DNA of 64,000 nucleotides from Lentisphaerota bacterium. Lineage in GTDB: Bacteria > Verrucomicrobiota > Kiritimatiellia > CAIQIC01 > Lenti-01. Shown here piece by piece: positions 5,330 to 55,787 of this stretch (position 1 is its first letter; each line of letters opens with the position of its first letter). Below the pieces are notes generated by a model. It was not told where the DNA came from and made no database searches. It worked only from the letters and a program-made list of their open reading frames with translations. The stretch is taken from the NCBI GenBank assembly GCA_012514035.1, contig JAAZBB010000015.1, positions 31,077 through 95,076 on the forward strand, given 5' to 3'. Both the position numbers and the translations under genes were made by a program.

Positions 5330-6663
5330 AGTTTCAAATCCGAAATGCCTGCTGGCTCGGCGACGACGCCTGGTTCCACCACGGCACAATTTCCATCGCG
5401 AACGGTCGCATCATGAAGCTGGAGAGCGACTTTGCCAGCGACACGCCATCCGCCGGCGAATTCATTGTGCCGGGGCTGATCGATGCCCACGTCCACCTGC
5501 GCGAGCCGGGGCAACCCTACAAGGAAGGCATCGCCAACGGGACGCTCGCCGCGCTCAAGGGCGGCGTGACCACCGTGCTCAACATGCCCAACAACGTGCC
5601 GCCGACCGCCTCCCTCGCGCGGCTCGAAGCCAAGCGCGCGCTGTTCGCCCAAAAATCGCGCGTCAACTACGGCCTGTTTTTGCAGGCCCGCATCGGCGGC
5701 CCGCGCGCGCCGGAGAGTGCCGCCGGCGTCAAGATCTACATGGCCAAATCGTCCGCCCTGGCCGCGGTCCGCGACCCCGCCGCTCTCGCCCAGATCTTCC
5801 GCCTTCAGAACCGCGTGGTCGTCCACGCCGAGGACGAGCGGGAGTTTTCCACAGGGTGGAAAAAAAGTTTCCACAGGGTGGAAAAAACGGGCGAAATTTT
5901 CCACAGTGTGGAAAAAAGTTTTCCACAGTGTGGAAAACTTCCCCATCACCTGCGCCGGCCGCGGGCGGCGGTGGTTGCGGCCTTGCAGAGCATCGCCACG
6001 GCCTGGCGGCGGGTGCCACCGAAAGAGCGGCCGCGGCTGGTCATCGCCCATTGCAGCACCGTCGAGGAAATCGACTGGGTGCGGAAGATGAAGCGGCAAG
6101 GCCACGACGTTTGGGCCGAAACCTGCCCGCACTATTTCCTGTTCACCGAACAGGATGATCGCGCGCGCGGCCCGGCATTGCAGGTGAATCCGCCGCTGCG
6201 GACCGAAGAAGACCGCGCGGCGGTTTTTGCGGCGGTGCAAGACGGCGGCATTGATTTCATCTCGACCGATCACGCGCCGCATTTGCCGAAGGAAAAGGCG
6301 GCGGACTCGCCGCCGTCGGGCATCGCGGGCCTGGAATGGTTCGGGCCGGTTTTGCTGACGCTGACCATGCGCGGGGAAATCTCGTGGCAGCGCTACCTAA
6401 AGCTGGCCGGCCAAAAGGCCGCGCAGTGCTACGGGATCGAAGGCCGCGGGCTGGTGCGCGAAGGCGCTTGGGCCGATCTGGCGATCGTGGCGAACAAGCC
6501 GCCGGCGGCGGCCCAGGAAAAAATCGTGACCCGTGCAGCGGTTCACCCCTATCCGCAGTTCGAATTCGCCGTCGGCATTCGGGCTACGCTGGTCAACGGA
6601 CGGCTGGCATGGACGGATGGGCGCGTGCGACCCGGCGTACACGGCAGGGAGGTGTATGGGTGA
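5320..6663 (+). CDS. pyrC: dihydroorotase (amidohydrolase superfamily)
   Basis: DAHVHLREPG HxH motif, VHAEDE, TCPHYF, STDHAPH. Sits in pyrimidine gene context. Carries an in-frame AT-rich tandem repeat at 5845-5938. Confidence 0.8.
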   Translation: MGMKFQIRNACWLGDDAWFHHGTISIANGRIMKLESDFASDTPSAGEFIVPGLIDAHVHLREPGQPYKEGIANGTLAALKGGVTTVLNMPNNVPPTASLARLEAKRALFAQKSRVNYGLFLQARIGGPRAPESAAGVKIYMAKSSALAAVRDPAALAQIFRLQNRVVVHAEDEREFSTGWKKSFHRVEKTGEIFHSVEKSFPQCGKLPHHLRRPRAAVVAALQSIATAWRRVPPKERPRLVIAHCSTVEEIDWVRKMKRQGHDVWAETCPHYFLFTEQDDRARGPALQVNPPLRTEEDRAAVFAAVQDGGIDFISTDHAPHLPKEKAADSPPSGIAGLEWFGPVLLTLTMRGEISWQRYLKLAGQKAAQCYGIEGRGLVREGAWADLAIVANKPPAAAQEKIVTRAAVHPYPQFEFAVGIRATLVNGRLAWTDGRVRPGVHGREVYG

Positions 6664-12828: not shown

Positions 12829-13712
12829 TATTTCCCGAACGGATTGATGTTTTTCAGCGCGCCGCCGACGGCGTCGCCGACGGCCTTCCCGGCATCCACC
12901 GCGCCGCCGACGACAGCCTTGCCCGCGTCGGTTGCGCCGCCAACGACGGCCTTCCCGGCATCCACGGCCCCTTCGCCGACGGCCAGGGCGCCTTCGCCGA
13001 CGGCCTTGCCGGCATCGCCGATCAGGTTGCCCGCACCGGCAATGGCGGTGCCGGCGGCTCCGGCGACGGCATTGAGGATTTCACGGATGGCCTCGGGAAT
13101 GCTGACGCCTTCCTTTTCCTTGCCCAGATCCGTCAGGGTAATGGGGGGCAGGGGAATGGGAATGGCCCCGCCGCCGGTCAGGGCCGCCGCTCCGGTGATG
13201 GAGAAGTTCATCTTGCTGCCGGTGATGGAGAGTTTTTCAATGACGACCTTCTTGCCGGGCTTTTCATCTTTGGGCGGCTCTGCCTTGGCTTCGCCTTCTT
13301 CTTCAGGTTTCTCTTCCTTGCCGGCCGAGAGCTGGTCGATCAAGGCGCCGAGATTGCTGTTGAGCAGGCCCTTTTCATAGGTCAGTTCAAGGCCTTCGAT
13401 GGTGATTTCCCGGATGACCATGGTGTCTGAAAGCAGGGTGGAGTTGTCGATATCCACCCGGACCGACCCGAGGTCAAACAGGCCCGGGGTGTTGAAGCCC
13501 TCGGGATTGCCGATGTGGAGGCCGCTGAGGGCGGCTTTGCCGCGCAGGAGAGAAATGTCGGCGTTGGCCAGGGTGGCCTCCACGCCGAGGGCGCCGGGTG
13601 CGGCGGCGTTGAAGCCCTTCAGGATCATTTTGTCCAGGGACAATTCCAGGACGACGAACAGAACGGCCAGGACGACGAGGACGCCAACCAGGATCTTCAA
13701 CAGCGTTTTCAT
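12828..13712 (-). CDS. membrane-anchored hypothetical protein with Gly/Ala-rich C-terminal repeats (AsmA-like?)
   Basis: Start set at MKTLLKILVGVLVVLAVLF (transmembrane anchor, AAGGAA ribosome-binding site 8 nt upstream). About five 11-aa DAGKAVxGGAx repeats at the C-terminus, encoded by 33-bp tandem DNA repeats. Confidence 0.5.
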   Translation of the reverse strand: MKTLLKILVGVLVVLAVLFVVLELSLDKMILKGFNAAAPGALGVEATLANADISLLRGKAALSGLHIGNPEGFNTPGLFDLGSVRVDIDNSTLLSDTMVIREITIEGLELTYEKGLLNSNLGALIDQLSAGKEEKPEEEGEAKAEPPKDEKPGKKVVIEKLSITGSKMNFSITGAAALTGGGAIPIPLPPITLTDLGKEKEGVSIPEAIREILNAVAGAAGTAIAGAGNLIGDAGKAVGEGALAVGEGAVDAGKAVVGGATDAGKAVVGGAVDAGKAVGDAVGGALKNINPFGK

Positions 13713-16671: not shown

Positions 16672-16690
16672 AACAGCCGGGGAACCTTAA

Positions 16691-17101
16691 CTACGAATTA
16701 ATCGAATTGCACGAATGGGAAGGGGCTAGAAAACGTTCATATTCCAATTTGGGATAGTGACTGAAATTGACCAGCAAAGCCAGTATCTTGCCGGTAGCTT
16801 TCAGGTAATTGATGACTTGGGCGCGGTGTTCGTCGCTCAAGTTCTTTGCCGACTTGATTTCCACGATGATTTTATCGAAACAGAGAAAATCCGGTTGATA
16901 AGTTTGTTTGAGGGATTTCGTTTTGTAGCACAGTTTCAGTTGGGGATGCTCGATAAATGGGATGCCTTGATCTCTGAACTCCATTGCCAGGCATTCCTGA
17001 TAGACCGCTTCCAGGAATCCGTGTCCCAATTGATTGTAGACTTCGAAACAGGCTCCAACGATCTTGAAGCTTTCTTCCTTGAACAGGATTTCGGTTTTCA
17101 T
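16691..17101 (-). CDS. GxxExxY protein (PDDEXK_3 nuclease-superfamily-like)
   Basis: GACFEVYNQLGHGFLEAVYQECL matches the GxxExxY signature. Local GC is roughly 40% against ~65% in the flanks. Its ATG lies inside a 27-bp terminal inverted repeat. Confidence 0.7.
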   Translation of the reverse strand: MKTEILFKEESFKIVGACFEVYNQLGHGFLEAVYQECLAMEFRDQGIPFIEHPQLKLCYKTKSLKQTYQPDFLCFDKIIVEIKSAKNLSDEHRAQVINYLKATGKILALLVNFSHYPKLEYERFLAPSHSCNSINS

Positions 17102-19722: not shown

Positions 19723-21138
19723 ATGAGAAACACCAAGATTGTCGGCACCATCGGCCCCGCTTCGGATACCCGGGAAATCCTGGGGCGGATGCTGGACGCC
19801 GGCCTGAACGTTGTCCGGCTGAATTTTTCACACGGCACGCGCGAAGCGCATGCCGCCAAGATTGCCCTGGTACGGGAACTGGCCGCCGGGAAAGGGCTGC
19901 CGATCGCCATTTTGCAGGATCTGGCCGGGCCCAAGATCCGGACCGGGGCCTTTGCCTGCGGCAGCATCGAACTGCACCCCGGCGACGAATTCATCCTGAC
20001 CGCCCGCGATGTCCCCGGCAGCTCCCGGGAAGTGGGCTTGACCTATCGGGAACTGCCCCGCGACGTGAGCCCCGGCGACACCCTGCTGCTGGCCGACGGC
20101 GCGTTGGAATTGCGCGTGGAACAGGTGACCGGTCCCGACATCCATTGCCGCGTGATCCTGGGCGGCCGCCTGAGCAGCCACAAGGGCATCAACCTGCCCT
20201 CCCGCAGCGTGCGCGCGCCGATCCTGACCCCGAAGGATCACGAGGATCTCGCGTTCGGACTGGCCCAGGGCGTGGACTATGTCGCGCTCTCGTTCGTGCG
20301 CTCGGCGGCCGACATCGAAGTGGCGCGCGCCTTCATGCGCGCTCAGGGCCGCCAGTGCCCGCTCATCGCCAAGATCGAGAAGCATGAAGCCCTGGACCAA
20401 CTGGATGCGATCATCGCCGCGGTGGATGGCGTCATGGTCGCCCGCGGGGACCTCGGCGTGGATATCCCCCCGGAACAGGTGCCCACGGCGCAGCGGAAAA
20501 TCATTGAGAAAGCCAACTTCGCCGGCAAGCCGGTCATCACGGCCACGCAGATGCTCAAGAGCATGACCGAAGCGCCGCGGCCGACCCGCGCGGAAGTGAC
20601 CGATGTCACCAACGCCGTTCTGGAAGGCACCGACGCGGTGATGTTGTCGGAGGAGACCGCCATGGGCCGTTTTCCCGTGGAGGCGGTCGCCACCATGGCC
20701 CGGATCGCGGCGGAAGCGGAAAGATGGTATTCCCGGGAAGCCTGGCGCCACCGTCTCCAGCAGGCGCCTCCGGAGGATGATTCCGAGGCAATCGCCCGCT
20801 CCGCCTGTGCCCTGGCGGAAACGATCGGGGCGAAGGCGCTGGTGATTGCCACCCAGACCGGCGGTACTGCGCGCCTGGCGGCAAAAACGCGGCCGCGCCA
20901 GCCCATCCTGGCCGGGACGGCGGATCCGGAAGTCTATCGCCGCCTGGCGCTGGTCCGCGGCGTGCGCCCCGCACTGATCCGGCCTGTCGATCACCTGCGG
21001 GATTTATTGGCGGAACTCCACCGCGCCGGCAAGGCATCCGGATGCATGGTTCCGGGCGATATCGTCGTTTGCACGGCCGGCTTTCCCCTCGGCCAGGCCG
21101 GAGCCAGCAATCTCATCAAGGTCGAGATGGTCCCCTGA
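19723..21138 (+). CDS. pyk: pyruvate kinase
   Basis: KIVGTIGPAS...NFSHG, MVARGDLG, and a 471-aa length. Confidence 0.95.
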   Translation: MRNTKIVGTIGPASDTREILGRMLDAGLNVVRLNFSHGTREAHAAKIALVRELAAGKGLPIAILQDLAGPKIRTGAFACGSIELHPGDEFILTARDVPGSSREVGLTYRELPRDVSPGDTLLLADGALELRVEQVTGPDIHCRVILGGRLSSHKGINLPSRSVRAPILTPKDHEDLAFGLAQGVDYVALSFVRSAADIEVARAFMRAQGRQCPLIAKIEKHEALDQLDAIIAAVDGVMVARGDLGVDIPPEQVPTAQRKIIEKANFAGKPVITATQMLKSMTEAPRPTRAEVTDVTNAVLEGTDAVMLSEETAMGRFPVEAVATMARIAAEAERWYSREAWRHRLQQAPPEDDSEAIARSACALAETIGAKALVIATQTGGTARLAAKTRPRQPILAGTADPEVYRRLALVRGVRPALIRPVDHLRDLLAELHRAGKASGCMVPGDIVVCTAGFPLGQAGASNLIKVEMVP

Positions 21139-21158
21139 CATGGTGGATGGGATCGGGG

Positions 21159-21557
21159 CGCATCTCCGTTTCATTGACTTGCATTCCATTTTCCCCCTTC
21201 CTGTGGCCAGAGCCGGCCAGAGACCTCTCCAGAAACCCAACCGTCCGGGCATTGAGCCAACGCGCCCTGCCAACGACCAACAGCCGGCCCGGTCACCGCC
21301 CGGGCCTACAGCAAAACCAAGCCGCCCGCCCGCTGTCCGCAGGACCTGCATACCGGCGGTTGCTTTGGAATTTGCATAAGTAGGTTATGGTTCGGGCGGG
21401 CCCCACCACCTTGTGTGGTGGGGGAGCAAACTTTGCCTCCCATGGCGCAAGGCCATGGGGGGGCGAAACAACCAAGTTCATCACCCATATTAGCAAGGCT
21501 CAATAAAGAAACCGCCATCCCTTGCCCCACGGTCGCTGCCACTCATGTCAATGAACC
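21159..21557. repeat. mosaic interspersed repeat block (modules B', A, D')
   Basis: 21159-21363 is the reverse complement of 49312-49521. 21380-21483 is about 95% identical to 43422-43532. 21506-21557 is the reverse complement of 49244-49294. Confidence 0.85.
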
Positions 21558-21634
21558 GAAGAGGCGGCCCATGAGATCGTTGATTGATTGGTTCTGATTG
21601 AGTTCTGCGCCGGGGATTGGCATGATGCCGCCCT

Positions 21635-22327
21635 ATGTCGCACAAGCGCACGCACGAGATTGCCTGTCCCTTCTGCGGGCGGGAGCAGCGGGTGGACCTG
21701 TGGGATTCCATCTGCGCGGACGAGCAGCCGGAACTGCGCGAGGCCCTGCTGCTGAACCGGGTCAACCGCGTGGAGTGCGCCGGCTGCGGGAAGAGTTTCC
21801 GCATCGACAAGCCCCTGGTCTATCGCGATGGGCGGCGGAATATTTTCATTCACTTCGATCCGCTGATCGGCGGTCGCACCTTGGCCGACGTGGAGGAATC
21901 CTTCCGCCAGGCGCAGGCGGAACTGAATGGTCTGCTGCCCGCGGATGTTGCCCCCCTCCAGGTCCACCTCGTGGTGGAATGGAGCGAGCTGATCGAACGG
22001 ATTTTTCTGCTGGAAGCCGGTCTGGATGCGCGCCTGGTGGAACACATCAAGTACCTCATGTATCGGCAGAACGCCGGCAAGCTCCCCGCCGACCGGAAAG
22101 GTCTCCTGTTCGATGCCCAGGACTCGACCGTTGATCAGCTCTGCTTTGTGGTCCAGGACCGCGCCACCCGGAAACTGGAAGCCGTTTTGAATTTCGCGCG
22201 GGCGGACTACGCGGCGCTGGCCAACGTGTTTCAAGCGGACGGTCAAGGGGGCCTGCTGGCAGAGCAGTTTCCAGGACCCTATCTGAATGGTCGCCTTCGT
22301 TTCCTGCAGGATCAGGCGGAACAATAA
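21635..22327 (+). CDS. CpXC domain-containing protein
   Basis: CPFCG...CAGCG paired Cys motifs typical of CpXC proteins. Confidence 0.55.
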   Translation: MSHKRTHEIACPFCGREQRVDLWDSICADEQPELREALLLNRVNRVECAGCGKSFRIDKPLVYRDGRRNIFIHFDPLIGGRTLADVEESFRQAQAELNGLLPADVAPLQVHLVVEWSELIERIFLLEAGLDARLVEHIKYLMYRQNAGKLPADRKGLLFDAQDSTVDQLCFVVQDRATRKLEAVLNFARADYAALANVFQADGQGGLLAEQFPGPYLNGRLRFLQDQAEQ

Positions 22328-27292: not shown

Positions 27293-27738
27293 CCGCAGAG
27301 GACCGCAGAGGAACACAGAGAAATATCCCGTGCTTAGCAGGAAAACAGGAAACCCAGGAAAACAGGAAGGGAATGATAGCCATTTTTCTATCACGCGAAG
27401 GCATGAAACCACCGGCTGCGGACAGGGAAGGCAGGGACGCCACTGAAACCTTCTCACGCTGAAGCGGGTACTAATAACGAGTTGTGTTTGTAGTCCAGCC
27501 TTTCAGGCTGCAAATTCGGCTTTTTATCGCGAAAAACGCCCCTTTTTGATGAAAATTTCAATAAATTGCCGGATTTTTGATTATTTTGCCTAAAAAATGC
27601 CTAAAAAATGCCAAAAATATGCCAAATTTTCCTGTTTTCCTGTTTTTCCTGCTTTCTTGCTTCGGTTTTGGGCTGTTCCTCCTGTAAATTTTGAAAAATT
27701 CTGTTCCTCCTGTCTAAATTCTTAGTAATTTGACCAAA
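27293..27738. promoter_or_regulatory. AT-rich structured intergenic region with inverted (CAGGAAAA)x3 / (TTTTCCTG)x3 arrays and TGCC-A6 tandem repeats
   Basis: 27338-27369 CAGGAAAACAGGAAACCCAGGAAAACAGGAAGG and 27627-27652 TTTTCCTGTTTTCCTGTTTTTCCTGC are inverted. TGCCTAAAAAA appears twice in tandem. TTCCTCCTGTCTAAATT appears twice before the ATG at 27739. Confidence 0.5.
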
Positions 27739-31389: not shown

Positions 31390-31608
31390 TCAGTTGCTGG
31401 CGTGGGCGGCTCTCCACGCCCCGTGGATTTCATGCCGGGCGAAGATTCTTCCGGGCTGGCGGCCCAGCAGCAGGACGCGCTCGCCGTCCTTGTCGGTCCA
31501 TTCCGTGTTGTTTTGCTCGCACTTTTCGAAGGGCTTGAGCGTGGCGGGATCCGGCAGCCCTTCGACGATGGTGTCAGTCATGACATCCGGGCCCGTGTTG
31601 TAGAGCAC
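31390..31608 (-). pseudogene. duplicated 3' fragment of the GT32 glycosyltransferase gene at 34800-35582
   Basis: The 72-aa ORF is more than 90% identical to the C-terminal 70 aa of the 34800-35582 protein. The underlying 235-bp DNA (31418-31652) is about 96% identical to 34825-35059. Confidence 0.7.
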
Positions 31609-31778
31609 GCCATACTGCGACAGCGGGGCATGGGCGTTGCGCCCCAGGCGTTATAATGGGCCATCTGGCCATTTGTTCTTGGATCCTCGGCGGGCGGAAT
31701 TGAGTGTCCGCCGCGGCAGGCCAACATGCCGCTAGCTTATATTAAGAAACACCCATGGGGTGGCGGGAGGCCGCGATT

Positions 31779-33494
31779 CTATTCATATTTTAGAAACAGC
31801 GGAGTGCCCTTATCGGGTCCACCAGTGATGATGCCGCGATCCACTTGGACTTTGCAGACTTCATCAGCGAGGGTGAGCGGCTCAATCCGGGCATCGAGGA
31901 TGGAGGCATCCTGAAAGAGATGCGCGAAAATCACGGGAAATATGTCCTGCAGGATTTGGATGCCGCCGGCGGACGCTAATTGGGGATCCGGCCAACGTAT
32001 GGCCAGAAAACTGCCATAGCGGTCCTGAATGTCGAGTCTATTGATTTCACTTGCCGGGTACCCTTCCAGGTTAAAGCAGTTTTTTGTGAGATAAGGGCCG
32101 TGGTCTCCCGCCAAGATGATAATGGCATCGGGATGATGCTGGAGGATCGTTTGAACATCCACTTGCATTTCTTGGTTGGCCTTGACGACATCCATTAGAT
32201 AGAGTTGCGTTTCGTCAGGCCGGCATATCCCGGAGTTTTGGCTATGTCCAGGCAGGCGATTATGGCAGTAACAGAAGATGGGCGCTGGATATGGCCGAGA
32301 GAGCGCATCTCTTTTTTCAGCAAGGAAAGAGTCATATGGGGTGGCGTCAAAGGAAATGTCAAATCTGAATTCTCCCTCCCATATCGCCCGGCTGATGATG
32401 TGGGCCGGTTTTGATGTCACCTTGGGATAGTAATAATCGTAGGCGGGAAAGGTGCGCTGGAATACATAGCCCTGGCCGATGATAGCGGTGGTTTGGTACC
32501 CCTGTTCTTTGAAAATGGCAGGTACGGCCGAGTACCCCGCCGTGAACAGCCGGTAATTGCTGTGCGGCAATATACGCACCGGATGCAACACGCGGCTCAT
32601 GGATTTGAGAGTATCGGCGCCAACTGTGTAGGTTCCTTCGTAGATATGAAACCCGTGGCTTTCAAGGAAATCGGTCTGCGGGGAGTTGTCGAATCCATAC
32701 GCATCCAAGGTTTCACGGTTGGCGTATGATTCGTAGATCAGCAAGAAAACATCTGGGCGGTGCAACATGTGTTTGCCGGCAAGAAATGAAAGAAGGGGGG
32801 CCGGCGGGACTTCCGCGGTTGCCGCCCGGTCGGAGCCGTCGCGTGCGCCGGTCTTCCATCCCGCGATTAGGCTGACGGAAAACATGCCAACGACCATGGC
32901 GTAGCATGTTTTTCTGCTGGCCGCGTAGACGCCGGTCAAGGCTGCGATGGTGACAAGCAGAATGGGGCCTTGAACCTTGAAGATTCCTGCTTGATACCAT
33001 CCGAATGCCGAGGAGTACGAGCCCATGTTGAACATGGTGTGGGCGAGTCCCACGCTCGTCAGCATGATGATGTGATTGGGCCATCGCGGAAATGCCAGAG
33101 AAAGCAGCCCCGGACAGGCGATGCAGCAAGCCCCAATAATTGCGGAAAAAAACAGGAAAACGAGAGCCGAATCCATGATTGATAGCATATCTTGATTTGC
33201 CAAAATATACTGAACAATCGGCGTGAGAGGCAGGAGGAGGAGAAGGAGGTCGCCCCAAATGGTTTGTTCGGCTTGGCAGCGGGGTTGAGGTGCGCCCTTA
33301 GGACGGTGAATCCTGCGGACGGTTTGAATAAGCCCTACCCCGATCAGGCCCGCGGCAACGGGCAACAACGCCTTGGACACAAATACCCTGTTGACACCTG
33401 AAGGCAGGAGAAACATGCCAATCGCCATCCAGGCCCCAAGCGTGCACAGCATCGCGAGCCCGCTTATAATCAATTTGTTGTAAGACGGAACCAT
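31779..33494 (-). CDS. membrane-anchored sulfatase-like protein (alkaline-phosphatase superfamily; LTA-synthase/phospho-transferase-like)
   Basis: Five N-terminal transmembrane helices, then a sulfatase-type domain (LLIYESYAN...LAGDHGP). Noticeably lower GC than the surroundings. Confidence 0.58.
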   Translation of the reverse strand: MVPSYNKLIISGLAMLCTLGAWMAIGMFLLPSGVNRVFVSKALLPVAAGLIGVGLIQTVRRIHRPKGAPQPRCQAEQTIWGDLLLLLLPLTPIVQYILANQDMLSIMDSALVFLFFSAIIGACCIACPGLLSLAFPRWPNHIIMLTSVGLAHTMFNMGSYSSAFGWYQAGIFKVQGPILLVTIAALTGVYAASRKTCYAMVVGMFSVSLIAGWKTGARDGSDRAATAEVPPAPLLSFLAGKHMLHRPDVFLLIYESYANRETLDAYGFDNSPQTDFLESHGFHIYEGTYTVGADTLKSMSRVLHPVRILPHSNYRLFTAGYSAVPAIFKEQGYQTTAIIGQGYVFQRTFPAYDYYYPKVTSKPAHIISRAIWEGEFRFDISFDATPYDSFLAEKRDALSRPYPAPIFCYCHNRLPGHSQNSGICRPDETQLYLMDVVKANQEMQVDVQTILQHHPDAIIILAGDHGPYLTKNCFNLEGYPASEINRLDIQDRYGSFLAIRWPDPQLASAGGIQILQDIFPVIFAHLFQDASILDARIEPLTLADEVCKVQVDRGIITGGPDKGTPLFLKYE

Positions 33495-33759
33495 GTCCTG
33501 GCCGGTGATGGTTGTGAAGCTGCGCCCCCGTTTTGCATCAAAGAATGCCCGAACCTGATCCTCGATGGAGAGATCTTGGATCCTGGTGATCTTTTAGAAC
33601 AATCGGTAGATCAATTGGCATTCGAACGCTATGTTTCTTCTGACAAATCAATATGTCATATCCCGATGGCAAGTCAAGCGGGCGGCGACAGTCAAGCGGG
33701 CGGCCGGGCGGCGAGAATGGGTCCTGTCCAGCTCGTCGGAGCCGGTCTGGGCGGGCACC

Positions 33760-34522
33760 CGCCCGGCGCCGCACCTCTTCAAAGAACCGCCCCTTGACGG
33801 GCACCCACGTCTACGTGTGGCTGGACGCGATCTGGCTGAAGCGCAGCTGGGCCGGCGAGGTCCGCAATGTGTCGGTGCTGGTGGCCATCGGCGTGGGGGA
33901 CGAAGGCTACCGGGAAGTGCTGGGCGTGCAGGAAGGGATGAAGGAGGACAAGGAGAGCTGGTCGGACTTCCTGAAGAACCTGCGGGGCCGCGGCCTGAAG
34001 GGCACGGAACTGTTCGTCACGGACAAGTGCCAGGGCCTGGTGGAGTCCGTCGGGGAGATCTTTCCCGAAGCCCGCTGGCAGCCATGCGTGGTGCATTGGT
34101 ACCGCAACGTGCTGCGGACCGTCCCCAAGACGAAGTGGCGGGAGGTGGCGGCCATGCTCAAGGCCATCCACGCCCAGGAAGACCGCCGCGCGGCGCTGCG
34201 CAAGGCGCACGACGTGCACAAGAAGCTGTTGGCCATGAAGCTGGCGAAGGCGGCGCAGATCATGCGCGAAGGCGTCGAGGAGGCCTTGGCCTACATGTCG
34301 TTCCCCCGGGAACACTGGCTCAAGATCCGCACGACCAATCCGCTGGAACGGATCAACCGGGAGATCCGGCGCCGGACCCGCGTGGTGGGCGCCTTCCCCG
34401 ACGGAAACGCGGCCGTTCTGCTGGTGGTAGTCCGATTGCGACATATTGCCGGCACCCGCTGGGGCACGAAAATGTACATGGACGTGAAACGCCTGGAAAA
34501 CCGGAAGGAGACCGCCGCCTGA
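33760..34522 (+). mobile_element. IS256-family transposase, N-terminally truncated remnant
   Basis: NRPLTGTHVYVWLDAIWLKRSWAGEVRNVSVLVAIGV...DGYREVLG matches the DDE region of the IS256/mutator family from the first Asp onward. The roughly 150 N-terminal residues are missing and no intact inverted repeats were seen. Confidence 0.8.
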
Positions 34523-34799: not shown

Positions 34800-35582
34800 C
34801 TATTTTGCATGCGCCTCGCGCCATGCCCCGTGGATTTCATGCCGGGCGAAGGTTTTGCCGGGCTGGCGGCCCAGCAGCAGGACGCGCTCGCCGTCCTTGT
34901 CGATCCATTCCGTATTGTTGTGCTCGCACTTTTCGAAGGGCTTGAGCGTGGCGGGATCCGGCAGCCCTTCGACGATGGTGTCAGTCATGACATCCGGCCC
35001 CGTGTTGTAGAGCACGCCATACTGCGACAGCGGGGCATGGGCGTTGCGCCCCAGGCGTTCCTGAATCCGGTTCAGGCACCGGGCCAGAATGGGCGAGTGG
35101 GGACGGCGGCTCCAGAAGACATAGTTGGCGATCCGCACGTTGTATTCCGGAACCTCCCCGCGAAACTCCCGGGTCATGGCCATGTTTTTCTGGACGGCCT
35201 CGTCGCTGTTTACGAATTCCGTCCAAGCCACGAAATCGGGTCCAGTTGGCACGGGCTTGCGTCCCCATTCAATATCGTGGTCGGAATAGATGCCCGCGCG
35301 GTCGTAGATCAGCAGCAAACGCAGGATGTCGGATCGCATCACCGGCGACGTGTAGGGTGCCCAGAAAAGTTCATAAATTCCCGGGAATTGGTCTTGATGC
35401 CGGGCCAAAAGGGCCCGGGTCTCGGCTTGACTGGACCACAGGATGACTTTTGCGCCCCGCGGCTTCCGTTTGTCCAGCGATCGCAAGTACCCGGTCGGAA
35501 TCGGATTGCCGTCGTTTTCCAGCCAGATCTTGTAAACTAGAACGACTGACTGAGGGGCAAAAGGCCAGCGGAAGAATTTCAT
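34800..35582 (-). CDS. glycosyltransferase family 32-like (DXD sugar-binding region)
   Basis: LLLIYDRAGIYSDHDIEW resembles the Gly_transf_sug DxD region. Start set at MKFFRWPF (ATG 35582). Confidence 0.58.
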   Translation of the reverse strand: MKFFRWPFAPQSVVLVYKIWLENDGNPIPTGYLRSLDKRKPRGAKVILWSSQAETRALLARHQDQFPGIYELFWAPYTSPVMRSDILRLLLIYDRAGIYSDHDIEWGRKPVPTGPDFVAWTEFVNSDEAVQKNMAMTREFRGEVPEYNVRIANYVFWSRRPHSPILARCLNRIQERLGRNAHAPLSQYGVLYNTGPDVMTDTIVEGLPDPATLKPFEKCEHNNTEWIDKDGERVLLLGRQPGKTFARHEIHGAWREAHAK

Positions 35583-42068: not shown

Positions 42069-42228
42069 GGGCGTTATTCCACAGGCGGAACGCAGCACTT
42101 TAGCGGCGTTCAAGCGAACAAATGACCCATAAGTATGGCGGCAAGGATGCGTTTTAGGCAAACGTATTTTGGCGGTTTAGATCTGGCGATCGGGCGCAGC
42201 CCGGTTCCATTGACAACGATTGGCCAAA

Positions 42229-42440
42229 TTTGGAGTGCGGCGGGAAGCGAGGCTCGGCGATCGCCACGCCGCTTTTTGTTTTTGGGGAGGCAGCCGAACG
42301 GTCAGCCATAACAGCCGGAACAGCCAAAGCGGGGCCGCCTCCCGTTGGTCGTTGTCCCCGCACTCCAAACCGATCCGCGCAATTTGGAGTGCGGCGGGAA
42401 GCGAGGCTCGGCGATCGCCACGCCGTTTTGGGGGGTGCCC
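42229..42440. repeat. interspersed repeat module C (one full and one partial tandem copy)
   Basis: 42229-42369 is about 90% identical to 49522-49664, with TTTGGAGTGCGG...CCGCACTCCAAA terminal inverted ends. A second partial copy sits at 42381-42425. Confidence 0.85.
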
Positions 42441-43387: not shown

Positions 43388-43421
43388 GAAGTCCGGCCCA
43401 TCTCTATTGAGTTTTTCAAAA

Positions 43422-43532
43422 GTAGGTTGCGGTTATGGTTCGGGCGGGCCCCGCCACCTTGTGTGGTGGGGGAGCTAACTTTGCCTCCCATGGCGCAAGG
43501 CCATGGGGGGGGCGAAACAGCCAAGTTCATCA
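43422..43532. repeat. interspersed repeat module A (solo copy), two GC-rich hairpins
   Basis: About 95% identical to 21380-21483. The hairpins are CCCC(A/G)CCACC-ttgtg-TGGTGGGGG and CCCATGGC-gcaag-GCCATGGG. Confidence 0.85.
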
Positions 43533-43609
43533 ATTTGGATGCGTCCGAGAAACTCGGCTGATCAAAATGGACTGGATTCGAAAGGCGCGCGGCGGCTAGA
43601 CTGCGCGCC

Positions 43610-49216: not shown

Positions 49217-49735
49217 TGCGCGGTTGTTTCCGGGCGTCTCTCCGGTTCATGGACATGAGTGGCAGGGACCGTGGGGCAAGGGATGGCGGTTTCTTCAGGA
49301 TTTTGACGGCGCGAAAACCAACCGCCGGCATGCAGGTCCTGCGGACAGCGGGCGGGCGGCTTGGTTTTGCTGTAGGCCCGGGCGGTGACCGGGCGGGCTG
49401 TTGGTCGTTTGGCAGGGTGCGTTGGCCAAATGCCCGGACAGTTGGATTTCTGGAGAGGTTTCTGGCCGGCTCTGGCCACAGGAAGGGGGGGGATGCAAGT
49501 CAATGAAACGGAGATGCGCCCTTTGGAGTGCGGCGGGAAGCGAGGCTTGGCGAGCGCCACACCGCTTTTTCTGGGTGCAGCCGAACCGGCGGCGGAACAG
49601 CCAACAGCCGGAACAGCCAAAGCGGGGCCGCCTCCCGTTGGTCGTTGTCCCCGCACTCCAAAAAGGCCGGCCGATGGGAGTCAGATATTTCATGTCCGGT
49701 CGGTCAATGACACAGAGATGCGCGGTTGTTTCCGG
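49217..49735. repeat. composite repeat element (modules D-B-C) bounded by 17-bp direct repeats TGCGCGGTTGTTTCCGG
   Basis: Direct repeats at 49217-49233 and 49719-49735. D at 49244-49294, B at 49312-49521 and C at 49522-49664 match the copies at 21159-21557 and 42229-42369. Confidence 0.85.
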
Positions 49736-52700: not shown

Positions 52701-52977
52701 CGGCGGCGTGGCTGGCGAATTCCGGCAGACCGCCGTCGGCCAGGTGGCGGTTCAAATCCGCGAATTCCTTTGCGCTGGCGGCTGCCTGCGCCAGCCGCGT
52801 CAGGATGCGCGCCAGGATTTCGCCCGCCGCCTTGCGCGTGAAGGTCAGCGCGACGATGGAGGCCGGGTCCGCCCCGCCGGCCAGCAGGGCCAGGTAGCGG
52901 CTGCTCAGCGCAAAGGTTTTCCCGGTGCCGGCGGATGCCGCCATCGCCGCGCTGCGGATGGAACAAGCGGTGTTCAT
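49789..52977 (-). CDS. addA: ATP-dependent helicase/nuclease subunit A (UvrD-like helicase plus C-terminal PD-(D/E)XK nuclease)
   Basis: N-terminal AGTGKTFAL Walker A of the UvrD/Rep family. C-terminal LDFKTD nuclease motif. 1062 aa. Overlaps the addB stop by 4 nt. Confidence 0.85.
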   Translation of the reverse strand: MNTACSIRSAAMAASAGTGKTFALSSRYLALLAGGADPASIVALTFTRKAAGEILARILTRLAQAAASAKEFADLNRHLADGGLPEFASHAAAQAALHALVHALPGLRIGTLDSFFLQILRQFRLEYGIAAEPGIAPDVQAAEEDLVLQRLLGQVAATEPHRRELMEAFQRATFGEEKKSVYGALQDLIGNQYELYRRAPRSELWGDASRIWPGGLPAPAQPDWPTVFSTLEDQAESIPPGQAQNDWRRFIGVLRACRQTGDFDFGNTLANRLYQAFAAPGETGASIQIRKSEVKLSAETRHTLAGVFAHIRHAILGRQIARTRGLFQLLSAYGRSRSEHIRGSGQVAFSDIAHLLSPAAGAAVADLRARMDYRLDARFRHWLLDEFQDTSLVQWSVIENLVDEVIQDAEGGRTFFYVGDVKQAIYEWRGGDPRLFRRILAKYNRPGAAPAIDVSEPLVASWRSSPVVLEAVNRVFNALAGMPLPRNEQLHGDWIEIAGRWQPEWTAHRAADPNKDLSGHVALHVLPRPGQEEPEEAEASYPPAIQRAARLVEQLRGEIPDFDRHSVAILTRSNPDGRNMLGALAAKGIHAVWAGNSELLDNTLIPAVLSLARLSEHPGDEFARQHVLMSALAPVVSLEPVELTAWARLIREQGYAGFVTRLAARLDLSQAPLEQNRLRLLISIAADFDRMPGGNALLFCSHVQAQEIPAEQSGSNIHILTMHKAKGLEYDIVILPALGSNGITAHSKEPLLVHERAGDEPLPPVDWILSSPETKALEADPVLAAQYAEDRRHNALEELRLLYVAMTRAKRALYLITTAPAEKSSTLRLDNVLQNTLAPGAEADPEIPAWEAGEREWWRRKTGDEKPADAPCAPLRFETLPRAPFERPMESHIASEDHAGGEGLDGRYFRPEGAEARDLGTRVHALFEQIEWLAAGELPKLETRDPLAAGLVTEFLQHPDAHAVLEHPGGAVELLREQAFEAVLDGRWLSGKIDRLHLERDAAGLPVRARVLDFKTDRTPDPGRHRLQMDDYRQAVARLFGLPPGQIVCTLLFVRTGDAIEL

Positions 52978-55787
52978 CGTTGGCCCGGCTCCCGGATCAG
53001 CGGCCGCCCCCCGGAAAACAGCGGCCCGAAATCGTCAAACCGGATGCTTCGATCCGTCGGCGGCCAGAACGTTCCGGCCTGGATGCGGGCAATGACTTCG
53101 CGGGCCTTGGCCAGGGCTGCGGGGTAGAGGTCTTCCCCGCCCTTGGAGCGCAGGTCCCACTCGAGGATTCCGGTCCGCCCGGTGGCCTGGGGCAGATTGA
53201 AATAGCCCACGGTGATGTCCGCGGCCGGAACATGCAACTGTTCGTAGATGAAGCGATAGAGCGGCAACTGCAGATCGGCCCAGCGCTCTTCCGAATTCGG
53301 CCGGAAGTGCGTTTTGAGGGGCGCATCCCCGCTGTCGGACGTCTTGTAGTCGAGGATGCGGATGCGCCCGGTTTCCAGATGCCGGTCAATCCGGTCTATG
53401 CGCGCCCGCAGAAGCATGCCGTCGAGTTCAGCCTCATGGTTCTCCTCGGCGGAGATGATTCGCCACCCCTCCCGAACCGCGGCCGCGTGGATGCGCGCAG
53501 CCGCGATCAGCCGCCGCCGCAGGGATTCCAGCTGGACGATCGCCGCAACCGGCGGCTGCGGCCCGAATCGCCGCCCCGCCAATTCGTCGAGTTCATGCAG
53601 CAGCCGGGCGCTGAGTTCTTCTTCATCGGCCAGCGCGGGGTGCTGCTTGAGGATGCGCAGGACCTCGTGCGCCAGGGTCCCGAAATCCATGATGCTGATT
53701 TCCCGGGCGCGGTCGTCTTCGGCCTGCATGCCGAACACCTCGGCCAGATAGAAGCGGAACGGACAGGTGAGATAGGTCTTGAACGCCGTCACGGACAACC
53801 GGCGTGGAATCCGCTCCGGCGGACAGGCCGGTGGCGTCAGTGGGAGTACCGGCCGCGCCGGAACCGCGGCGGCCGTCCCGCGCCATCCGGGCCGCCCGAA
53901 AATCAGGTTCACACGCCCGGGCAGAGCGGAATCCGGGCACGCCAGCAGGAGGCGGGAAGGCAATTGCGGGTCCTGGTTTGCGGCCCGCCGGCTGTACAGG
54001 AAACGCACCCCCCCGGCCGGGCGCGATTCCAGCAACGTGCGGGCCAGATACAGGTCCCGGGCATGCAACTCGCGGTTCCCGGCCATGCCCGCCTTGGCGC
54101 GGATGGAATCCGGCAGGAAGGCATCGCCCATCCGGGTTTCCGGAATGACGCCTTCACGCATGTCCGCCAGCAGGACTGCCGGCGACGTTTCCCATTGCAC
54201 TTCCAGCCAGCCGATGGTCTCCCGTGTGGCGGACCGGTTGGGCTTGGGAAACACCGTTTCGTTGCCCATCGCCGCCAGCAGCAGATCAATGGCATCTTCC
54301 CTGGTCAGTTTCAGGAGGCGGGCAGTCTCTGCGGTTGTCCCGATCAAGTCGGCCAGGCGGGCGGCCGCCTCGGCAAACAGCGGATCGGGAGGGAAATCCG
54401 CCGCCGGCCGGCGCGCATCATGGACATCGGCCAGGAAACGCGGCAGGGCATCCCCGAAATGTTTGCTCAATTCGTCCAGGGCACTGGCCAGCACCCGCCC
54501 ATCCGGGTCCTGCTGCGCAAACCGGCGCAGGTCATCGAAGGTCATCGGCAGGTGTCGGGCCTGGCATTGATCCAGTTGGGACAGCAACTCCACCGCGTCC
54601 TGCAGCCCCAGCCGGCCGCAGAGCCAGGCCTGGGCGTCGGGATGCCGGAGAAAAGCGGCGGTGGCGGCATAATCCCGCCGTCGCAGCAGCGACAGCCAGT
54701 CGGCCAACAGCCGGCCCGGCGCGGTAGCGGCCAGCGGCACCCCGTTGGGCAGGTACAGCGCGACATTCTCCGCCTGCAGGCGGCGGGCGAGGGCCTGGGC
54801 GTTTCCGGGATCAGGTGTGCAGACCGTCAGCGCCTGCTTCTTCCGGTGCGCTTCCAGCACCATGGCTGCCAGCGTTTCCGTTTCGTCGGGAGCCTGTTCA
54901 AAGACATGAATCTGGTGTTCCGGCAAGGGCAGGGGCTGGTTTTCCCAGTGCGCGGGGAGGGGTCGCCCCCAATCGTCGAACCGGTTCCCCTCCGCGGCCG
55001 GCGCCAGGATATGCAGCTCAATCTCACATGGCGCGGCCAGCGTTTGGATCCGGTGCACGGCCAGGGCCGGCAAATCCGGAACGAACAGAACCAACACCCG
55101 CTGAAAAGGCGCCGGCGGCGATGCCTGCCCCGCCGCTTCGCGGCGGGCCTGGAACGGATCCCGCAATCCCTGCCGCGCGATATCCTGCAACAAGCCCTGT
55201 TCCAGTGCGGCGATCTCGCTCCAGCGTTCCCGTTCCTCGTCCGGCACCAGCGCGATCATGTCGGCGGCCGCACGATCCGCCTGGGTCAACTGCCGCCGGA
55301 CCTCCTGGAGCTGCGCGGCGATTCCGAGGGCAAAGGCAAAGTCCCATGGCGTGCCATGGGTGGGCAGCAACGCCGGAAGTTGGTTGTGCTGGTTGAGCAG
55401 CCGCCGCGCCAGCAGCGCCAGCACCAGGGTTTCGTCCGCCACTCCATCCGGCAGCGAACCCATATGCTCCGGCGTCACAATGGAACCACCCAGGACAGCC
55501 GTCCCTCTCGCCGCAGCCGTTCGGGCCAGTTCCGCGCGTAACCGCCGCCCTGCGTGGCGCGTCGGCACCACGATCAGGCAACTCCGCAGATCCAGCGGCC
55601 CCGGCCCCGGCCAGTCCCGCGACAGCACCTCCACCGCCGCTCGCAGGACCGGGGTTTTCCAGTCGTGGAAATGCCGGGAAATGCTCACCCCCGAACCCTG
55701 ACGGAAAGAACCGTAAAAATCAATTTCAACCCGGCATGCGCCGGCGGCCATGCCCGGCCATTGCCATCCCGGGTTTTCCAGGCTCAT
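52974..55787 (-). CDS. addB: helicase/nuclease subunit B-like PD-(D/E)XK nuclease family protein
   Basis: 937 aa. N-terminal degenerate ATPase region (LIVVPTRHAGRRL). C-terminal RecB-type nuclease region (YLTCPFRFY). Co-operonic with addA. Confidence 0.68.
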   Translation of the reverse strand: MSLENPGWQWPGMAAGACRVEIDFYGSFRQGSGVSISRHFHDWKTPVLRAAVEVLSRDWPGPGPLDLRSCLIVVPTRHAGRRLRAELARTAAARGTAVLGGSIVTPEHMGSLPDGVADETLVLALLARRLLNQHNQLPALLPTHGTPWDFAFALGIAAQLQEVRRQLTQADRAAADMIALVPDEERERWSEIAALEQGLLQDIARQGLRDPFQARREAAGQASPPAPFQRVLVLFVPDLPALAVHRIQTLAAPCEIELHILAPAAEGNRFDDWGRPLPAHWENQPLPLPEHQIHVFEQAPDETETLAAMVLEAHRKKQALTVCTPDPGNAQALARRLQAENVALYLPNGVPLAATAPGRLLADWLSLLRRRDYAATAAFLRHPDAQAWLCGRLGLQDAVELLSQLDQCQARHLPMTFDDLRRFAQQDPDGRVLASALDELSKHFGDALPRFLADVHDARRPAADFPPDPLFAEAAARLADLIGTTAETARLLKLTREDAIDLLLAAMGNETVFPKPNRSATRETIGWLEVQWETSPAVLLADMREGVIPETRMGDAFLPDSIRAKAGMAGNRELHARDLYLARTLLESRPAGGVRFLYSRRAANQDPQLPSRLLLACPDSALPGRVNLIFGRPGWRGTAAAVPARPVLPLTPPACPPERIPRRLSVTAFKTYLTCPFRFYLAEVFGMQAEDDRAREISIMDFGTLAHEVLRILKQHPALADEEELSARLLHELDELAGRRFGPQPPVAAIVQLESLRRRLIAAARIHAAAVREGWRIISAEENHEAELDGMLLRARIDRIDRHLETGRIRILDYKTSDSGDAPLKTHFRPNSEERWADLQLPLYRFIYEQLHVPAADITVGYFNLPQATGRTGILEWDLRSKGGEDLYPAALAKAREVIARIQAGTFWPPTDRSIRFDDFGPLFSGGRPLIREPGQR

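Follow-up and report, generated by a model that had tools for sequence, protein, structure and literature searches.

In Escherichia coli, mosaics of short palindromic modules make up the BIMEs, and REP palindromes are the sites of IS1397-type insertion. Palindromic repeats of another kind, the Rickettsia palindromic elements (RPEs; Ogata et al. 2000, cited after PMC10969869), occur both in intergenic DNA and in frame within unrelated housekeeping genes, and intragenic REPs have been reported in several phyla, including in the REP-rich verrucomicrobium Opitutus terrae (PMC3733652). Bacterial MITEs such as Correia/NEMIS, ERIC and Nezha (PMC10969869, PMC3184786) are short, non-coding and bounded by inverted repeats, lie in unrelated spacers and fold into long hairpins. 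REPINs (Bertels and Rainey, bioRxiv 10.1101/2021.07.10.451892), in turn, are non-autonomous, structured elements of ~100 nt that outlast neutral DNA within a lineage. Here we describe three repeat families, designated A, B-D and C, from the window, by which we mean the whole 64-kb stretch of DNA analysed, and focus on the spacer between its pyk and CpXC genes (gene identities, here and below, are taken from Pfam tables). No description of the A, B-D or C families was found in the literature.

Module A most closely recalls the RPEs. Both are small palindromic repeats of ~100-150 bp that add a conserved peptide to a gene that is kept, with no associated transposase, and A has a conserved palindromic structure that is inserted in frame in otherwise intact housekeeping genes. 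It differs from the RPEs in coming from another phylum (Verrucomicrobia-like MAGs), in being inserted in both orientations and so giving rise to two peptides, and in that its nucleotide core, not its peptide, is conserved. No homology between the two is demonstrated, and in view of the different phylum and the 65-70% GC it appears very unlikely; A is likened to the RPEs by its behaviour and would work like an RPE without being a member of that family. B-D (290 bp, with 23-nt terminal inverted repeats) and C (141 bp, with 12-nt repeats) share the MITE features listed above, but neither a target-site duplication nor a parent insertion sequence was found for them. As in REP/BIME mosaics (REP survey, PMC3733652), variable palindromic modules fill the spacer and one element sits in the loop of another's palindrome, whereas the stems here carry no GTAG/CGTC tag, the modules are far longer than the 20-40-nt REPs and no RAYT was found. 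A also shares with the REPINs its non-autonomous, structured character, its size and its persistence beyond that of neutral DNA, but it does not consist of one REP repeated in inverted orientation, and a cognate RAYT is not known.

The composite repeat between pyk and CpXC

The spacer from the pyk stop (21138) to the CpXC start (21635) measures 496 nt, of which 415 belong to a repeat block at 21156-21570, delimited by BLASTN, alignment and a terminal-repeat pattern search. This block consists of a B-D element, inverted relative to a second copy at 49 kb, with module A inside. Comparison of the window with itself by BLASTN paired the B arm (21156-21366) with the reverse complement of 49315-49521 (92.5% over 212 nt, E 6e-81), A (21383-21483) with 43431-43532 (96.1% over 102 nt, E 6e-41) and the D arm (21506-21570) with the reverse complement of 49232-49295 (92.3% over 65 nt, E 1e-18). 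With E values of 1e-18 to 6e-81, these matches are not due to chance. The initial annotation had recorded the same three repeat pairs, and both BLASTN and the repeat search bear it out, with coordinates that agree to within a few bases. Its account of the finer geometry needs some adjustment: the D match is real but runs ~13 nt further outward than had been noted; D and B, described as adjacent at 49 kb, are close together but have 19 nt between them (49296-49314); and the block, said to fill the whole 500-bp gap, fills most of the spacer and not all of it.

Alignment of the outer ends of B and D uncovered the same 23-nt sequence, GGGCGCNTCTCCGKTTCATTGAC, in inverted orientation. This terminal inverted repeat has exactly four matches in the 64 kb, as against 0.01 expected from shuffled sequence. 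Because it stands at each end of each copy, B and D are to be read not as separate modules but as the two arms of a single ~290-bp non-coding element, of which the 21-kb copy represents the inverted form. In that copy the repeat at the B end (GGGCGCATCTCCGTTTCATTGAC, 21156-21178, plus strand) matches the pattern with no mismatches, and the one at the D end (GGCCGCCTCTTCGGTTCATTGAC, 21547-21569, minus strand), placed by alignment of the element ends, does so with two. The A-free copy of 290 bp occupies 49232-49521 and has its terminal repeats at 49232-49254 (plus strand) and 49499-49521 (minus strand). At both loci the boundaries of B-D are exactly these terminal repeats, and the flanking sequences, pyk and CpXC in one case and an AddA-like helicase-nuclease gene and tRNA-Thr in the other, are unrelated and without homology. 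A GATCG common to both copies just beyond the terminal repeat looks like part of the element. B-D is therefore MITE-like in being short and non-coding and in having terminal inverted repeats at both ends, but it departs from the MITE pattern in that no direct repeat, and thus no target-site duplication, adjoins either copy. Nor was a parent insertion sequence found in the window, whose one transposase, a truncated IS256-family gene, is not accompanied by matching ends. In the 64-kb window and contig L007 together, the evidence for copies of B-D comes from two to three places: the window has two copies, L007 has a further junction, and a solitary terminal repeat at 42190 may be added to these.

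B-D contains an internal palindrome with 12-nt arms. At 21 kb the left arm (GGCGGTTGCTTT, 21355-21366, plus strand) is 92% complementary to the right arm identified by the palindrome search (AAAGAAACCGCC, 21505-21516, plus strand), and the two are separated by 138 nt in which A is found, whereas the arms of the 49-kb copy (GGCGGTTGG.../...GAAGAAACCGCC) enclose a loop of 22 nt. The loop of the internal hairpin of B-D at 21 kb is thus taken up by A. The junction is not a clean one: the 22-nt loop of the 49-kb copy has been replaced rather than split, and is unrecognisable on either side of A. A 12-nt inverted repeat was considered as belonging to A itself and was rejected, because the 49-kb copy has the same arms (GGCGGTT.../...AACCGCC) without A and they are thereby assigned to B-D; of a similar pair of arms in era (L010), one part is the tail of A and the rest is coding sequence. 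In L007, a low-coverage contig, the end of pyk and the B arm are joined to a different interior, with a 141-nt C element at the position of A, followed by a D-end terminal repeat and then by a recJ-like gene with no counterpart in the window. This contig may come from a rearranged strain or may be an assembly chimera across repeats. Whichever its origin, it is a third B-D-type junction, and it suggests that the B-D interior may be a preferred landing site.

The C element next to the 49-kb copy (49522-49662) is 141 nt long, has a perfect 12-nt terminal inverted repeat (TTTGGAGTGCGG...CCGCACTCCAAA) and directly abuts the B end of B-D. As DNA it folds into one long hairpin (-40.8 kcal/mol, z-score -3.2), and it is 86% identical by BLASTN to 42229-42369. 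The latter copy is part of a second mosaic cluster, located between divergent genes at 42187-42430 (BLASTN, repeat and pattern searches, end alignment), in which a solitary B-D-type terminal repeat at ~42190-42216 is followed by the full C at 42229-42369 and a half C at 42377-42429. We prefer to view C as a second MITE bounded by terminal inverted repeats that abuts or replaces parts of B-D. The junction of terminal repeat, linker and C in this cluster recurs in L007 with 89% identity, and a JGI contig from the same organism ends ~45 nt ahead of the cluster.

The long ORFs that run through the block are repeat translations, as the initial annotation held, and none has a Pfam family. Indels of 1 nt and 5 nt separate the B copies at 21 and 49 kb and are incompatible with coding. 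When one reading frame of B-D was searched against proteins, the only matches, P0001 and P0002, were translations of the same loci. The coding hypothesis was rejected on these three grounds. A 1148-aa query combining all B-D frames with the CpXC N-terminus had no match, not even P0001, and was thus uninformative as a query. Rfam at gathering thresholds returned tRNA-Thr as the sole match in the window, and at E<=10 the region 21100-21700 gave chance-level matches only, of at most 15 bits. Rfam thus offers no support for the alternative, named by the initial annotation, that the modules are segments of one known ncRNA. The promoter scan found none inside the block, the terminator scan of the block found only two weak 5-bp stems, and folds of B and D on both strands were no better than those of shuffled sequence (z-scores +0.27 to -0.54). 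At 49 kb the tRNA-Thr gene has its own sigma-70-type promoter, situated between B-D and the gene. An origin from a prophage, plasmid or attachment site was also rejected: IMG/VR pattern scans and BLAST against phages and plasmids were empty, and B-D lies upstream of tRNA-Thr rather than at its 3' end.

The pyk-CpXC spacer is 100% identical in five other independent metagenome assemblies of the same organism, and every contig with an identical pyk or CpXC protein also has the block. No presence/absence polymorphism of the block was seen among the assemblies of this species examined, which counts against its being a mobile repeat.

Several other repeats were observed in the window. A 239-nt direct repeat (96.7%) at 31414-31652 and 34821-35059 brackets a 3.2-kb segment containing a sulfatase-like membrane ORF (31779-33494, minus strand) and the 5'-truncated IS256-family transposase gene (33653-34522). 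This segment may be a decayed composite insertion, and the contig of another assembly ends at ~31457. In the 27.3-27.7-kb spacer, an inverted repeat of AGGAAAACAGGAA-type units (27336-27368 and 27629-27661) may be another multi-copy repeat; contigs of two other assemblies, including NCBI DAIQGV010000017.1, end at ~27.1-27.3 kb. A 32-nt repeat, TTAACTACGAATTA..CGAATT.C.CGAATGG (88%), is found at the 3' ends of purN and a PDDEXK_3-family gene (1954-1985 and 16687-16718), and three tandem 33-nt units (67-75% identical) at 12858-12984, inside a DUF748 gene, probably encode a repeat within the DUF748 protein. ARAGORN placed a tRNA-SeC at 55065-55143 (minus strand), inside a 937-aa AddB-like (PDDEXK_1) ORF at 52974-55787; the Rfam tRNA model was negative and the call is probably a false positive.

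Module A and its copies within housekeeping genes

The 21-kb copy of module A is a double-hairpin palindromic element at 21378-21481 on the plus strand (123 bits with the covariance model; 96% to 43431-43532 by BLASTN), with a weakly conserved AT-rich leader that extends back to ~21362. Hairpin 1 (CCCCACCAC / CTTGT / GTGGTGGGG, 21401-21423, plus strand) was recognised from folds and has 9 pairs that are 98.9% paired, 2 of them compensatory, and hairpin 2 (CCTCCCATGGC / GCAAG / GCCATGGGGGG, 21436-21462, plus strand), recognised from folds and the palindrome search, has 11 pairs, 3 of them compensatory. Both hairpins are GC-rich. In a 10-copy alignment their 20 pairs are 98% paired across copies, and compensatory double changes affect five pairs, values that were reached by 0-1 of 500 shuffles. 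The stems are flanked by GGGCGGG/GAGC and TTTGCCT/GGGGCGAAAC, and in all 10 copies one strand folds better than the other, by 3-12 kcal/mol. The core measures ~80 nt, or ~125 nt with the AT-rich leader, and the ends of the element read YATGGTTCGGGCGGG...GGCGAAA.

Pattern scans, BLAST and the covariance model together yielded a family of 11 copies at 8 loci. Within the window the model finds exactly the two known copies, and beyond it one diverged relative in L010. The second window copy is a solitary, long-form A at 43408-43535 (plus strand; BLASTN, with a covariance-model match of 119 bits at 43426-43530) that starts 20 nt past the stop of a response-regulator/HPr gene, with a glycosyltransferase gene downstream of it. 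Pattern scans detected copies with unrelated flanks in L004, a MAG labelled Spartobacteria bacterium, and in L006, a metagenome contig; L005 is the 43-kb A locus of another strain. In the 10 kb upstream of the window, a dense purine operon, there are no further copies. The long form, represented at 43 kb, at 21 kb, in L006 and in era, has an extra AT-rich leader (TTGAGTTTTKCAWAAGTAGRTTG...) and a tail (CAGCCAAGTTC) and measures ~125 nt, and the purD copy, which lacks leader and tail, is a short form of ~81 nt. An exhaustive profile search with the A peptide, covering 1.8 billion representative proteins, returned eight short motif-bearing ORFs only, and the A family is thus rare or narrow in public data.

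The diverged relative in L010 is intergenic (5717-5816, minus strand) and combines a CCCACGGGGCAAGCCCGTGGG hairpin with tandem CTACAACCGAAACTG units. AT-rich ATTGAATATTGGACATTGG repeats ahead of it resemble the leader beside the L004 copy, and its existence suggests that there may be a wider superfamily of A-like modules. When L005 (8613 onward) is compared with the window (43554 onward), the two are identical through the 43-kb A and diverge totally 20 nt past its end, at a point that falls within a small palindrome, CCGAGAAACTCGG; we read this as an apparent strain-specific insertion or rearrangement adjoining A.

A six-frame query with A matched PurD (P0005, P0006), Era (P0007, P0008) and two tandem TPR/membrane paralogues (P0003, P0004). 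BLAST with the DNA of the matched genes located an A-like segment in each, and one more in guaA of L008. The element is in frame in all of these genes, in both orientations, as illustrated by the copies in guaA (L008 4825-4904), purD (L009 8066-8150), era (L010 4685-4769) and the two TPR paralogues (L011 4525-4608 and 6765-6848). It is antisense in purD, guaA and era, where it encodes the peptide FAPPRPCAVGGQVGSPTTQGGGARPN, and sense in the TPR genes, where it encodes SGGPHHLAWWGSKLSLPWRKAMG. The intragenic cases number only six so far. Four of the five copies checked have a core that is free of stops in all six frames, compared with 2.9% of shuffles, the exception being the 43-kb copy.

The purD and guaA genes of the window itself are without the insert and represent empty alleles. 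Where the window purD reads ...PVPDVDAATMAEI..., its orthologues in L008 and L009 have ~29 extra residues, and in a HMMER alignment to solved PurD structures residues 233-262 of P0005 make a clean insert at the point where 2qk4 goes from residue 265 to residue 267. At the nucleotide level, the L008 gene has ATGGCGGA, an 81-nt insert and ATGGCAGA, whereas the window gene has a single ATGGCGGA. These flanks represent an 8-bp target-site duplication, which has decayed in the L009 purD. A parallel case is guaA, which is empty in the window (MLRPDLEHIAVLDF) and filled in L008, where it has a 30-residue insert. An AlphaFold model of PurD with its insert reached a mean pLDDT of 37.5 from a 3-sequence alignment, too low to place the insert. 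The initial annotation's proposal that A is an independently mobile small element inside a pre-existing B-D has held up well, as A stands alone at 43 kb and in at least eight places in other contigs with unrelated flanks, and one purD copy combines an 8-bp target duplication with an uninterrupted allele for comparison. Direct repeats flanking A, the signature that the annotation had singled out, were found in this L008 purD and are not apparent beside the 21-kb or the 43-kb copy. The related expectation of a dispersed family rather than sequences unique to these loci is borne out for A; B-D amounts to two copies and the one L007 junction.

The core of A is better conserved than the genes that carry it. 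Between L008 and L009 the purD gene has 76.7% nucleotide identity, whereas 75 of the 78 nt of the A core are identical and the A tail has decayed. Similarly, the two TPR paralogues are 68% identical overall, as against 87 of 90 nt in their A cores. Core identity thus stands at 96-97% where the surrounding genes are at 68-77%, and not even the loops or the linker vary in either coding orientation. Conservation above the level of the host genes is not expected of purely neutral junk, and it counts against regarding A as a mere passenger. The cause could be purifying selection acting on the nucleic acid, gene conversion between copies or repeated re-insertion.

Proposed nested mobile repeats and rival explanations

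We consider it probable that the block arose from nested non-autonomous mobile repeats, B-D being a MITE-like element, A a small structured element in the loop of its palindrome and C a second MITE. This reading draws on features that are directly observed: the repeats and their terminal inverted repeats, the covarying hairpins and dispersal of A, the filled and empty alleles of purD and guaA, and the one 8-bp duplication. We infer an order of events in which A would have inserted into a pre-existing B-D, between its palindrome arms. The A family would spread by cut-or-copy insertion catalysed in trans, and a DDE transposase is the favoured candidate for the mobilising enzyme because of the 8-bp duplication. 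Neither an intact transposase with matching ends nor a RAYT was found in the window, in which the truncated IS256-family gene is the sole transposase; this gene (33.6-34.5 kb) was considered as the mobiliser and rejected, its surroundings having no match to the element ends. Once inserted, copies of A with a net length that is a multiple of three may persist in genes, as the core is mostly free of stops, and be translated as surface insertions like the Rickettsia palindromic elements. The intergenic elements would probably be near-neutral passengers that gather in a few long spacers, and an influence on the termination of pyk or the expression of CpXC, if there is one, would be secondary.

An alternative view of the A core is that it is a nucleic-acid module kept by selection, either as a structured DNA or RNA site bound by the host or by a domesticated transposase, or as a vertically inherited REPIN-like replicator. 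If true, this would explain why a core of 78-90 nt remains 96-97% identical at orthologous and paralogous positions alike, with invariant loops and linker, yet we regard such selection as rather unlikely. A more specific proposal would have A be REP/REPIN-like. An HUH tyrosine transposase that has been domesticated (RAYT or IS200/IS605-type TnpA) would maintain it and copy it in the form of single-stranded DNA hairpins, and A would be not a DDE-mobilised MITE but a quasi-mutualistic replicator passed on vertically. The two conserved, covarying hairpins and the folding bias towards one strand in all 10 copies fit this proposal, as do the lack of clear terminal inverted repeats in A and of a target duplication around most copies. 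The strong conservation across species, even within genes, also resembles REPIN persistence (bioRxiv 10.1101/2021.07.10.451892), and REPs within genes are known, with GTAG REPs abundant in the verrucomicrobium O. terrae (PMC3733652). However, neither GTAG nor CGTC abuts the stems of A, the sole GTAG being located ~20 nt upstream in the leader, and hairpin 1 has no sequence relationship to hairpin 2 and each folds on its own, which means that A is not a doublet of inverted REPs. A therefore lacks the defining REP features tested, the abutting tag and the inverted doublet. Given in addition that an 8-bp direct target duplication like that in purD is typical of DDE and not of HUH enzymes, and that no Y1 transposase or RAYT gene was found in the ~75 kb of this genome that was covered, we think that a REPIN-like mode of copying is unlikely.

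It is also conceivable that the modules are functional cis-acting or small RNAs and that their repetition reflects the reuse of a regulatory cassette, for example as a terminator or mRNA-stabilising hairpin for pyk, as a leader for CpXC and tRNA-Thr, or as a small-RNA gene. Covarying hairpins and an A core under apparent constraint would be in keeping with such a role, and the solitary copies at 43 kb and in L006 begin ~20-25 nt past a stop codon in sense orientation. Yet there is no Rfam match for the modules even at E<=10, A neither contains nor follows a sigma-70-like promoter, no T-tract terminator comes behind its hairpins, and the presence of A in unrelated housekeeping ORFs in both orientations is unexpected of a cis-regulatory RNA. 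For its part, B-D points the same way at both loci with respect to the co-directional genes on either side: the upstream stop is followed by the B end, and the D end comes ahead of the downstream gene. But this common orientation concerns n=2 loci, the tRNA-Thr promoter lies outside B-D, and the B and D folds are no better than shuffled sequence. We therefore find an RNA function for the modules very doubtful. Segmental duplication or recombination between spacers, with A ancestral in B-D and deleted from the 49-kb copy, would do away with transposition altogether, and the unclean A junction in B-D, with no target duplication, agrees with it. So do the fuzzy boundaries, as illustrated by the TTTGGRRTTTTGC that is common to the A leader and to the B-D interior beside A in L007 and at 21 kb, and the L007 contig itself, with its recombinant arrangements or assembly chimeras across repeats. 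What makes this scenario highly improbable is that A has unrelated flanks in several species, that purD and guaA exist as filled and empty alleles with an 8-bp duplication around one insert, and that the terminal inverted repeats mark the exact limits of B-D in both places, next to flanks that are not homologous.

Nested mobile repeats thus remain our preferred explanation, and they bear on how such genomes are annotated and assembled. The ORFs of 79-165 aa at 21.1-21.6 kb and 49.2-49.8 kb should not be gene calls, and the repeat clusters are candidate causes of assembly breaks, as contigs of other assemblies end near those at 42.2 kb and 31.4 kb. Module A is a previously undescribed family of a familiar kind of selfish DNA. 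Few bacterial palindromic elements are known to persist in essential genes and to lengthen the encoded proteins, a behaviour best documented in Rickettsia, and A extends their number with a family from Verrucomicrobia-like MAGs. The conservation of its core offers a way to ask whether elements of this sort owe their maintenance to selection, to gene conversion or to repeated re-insertion.
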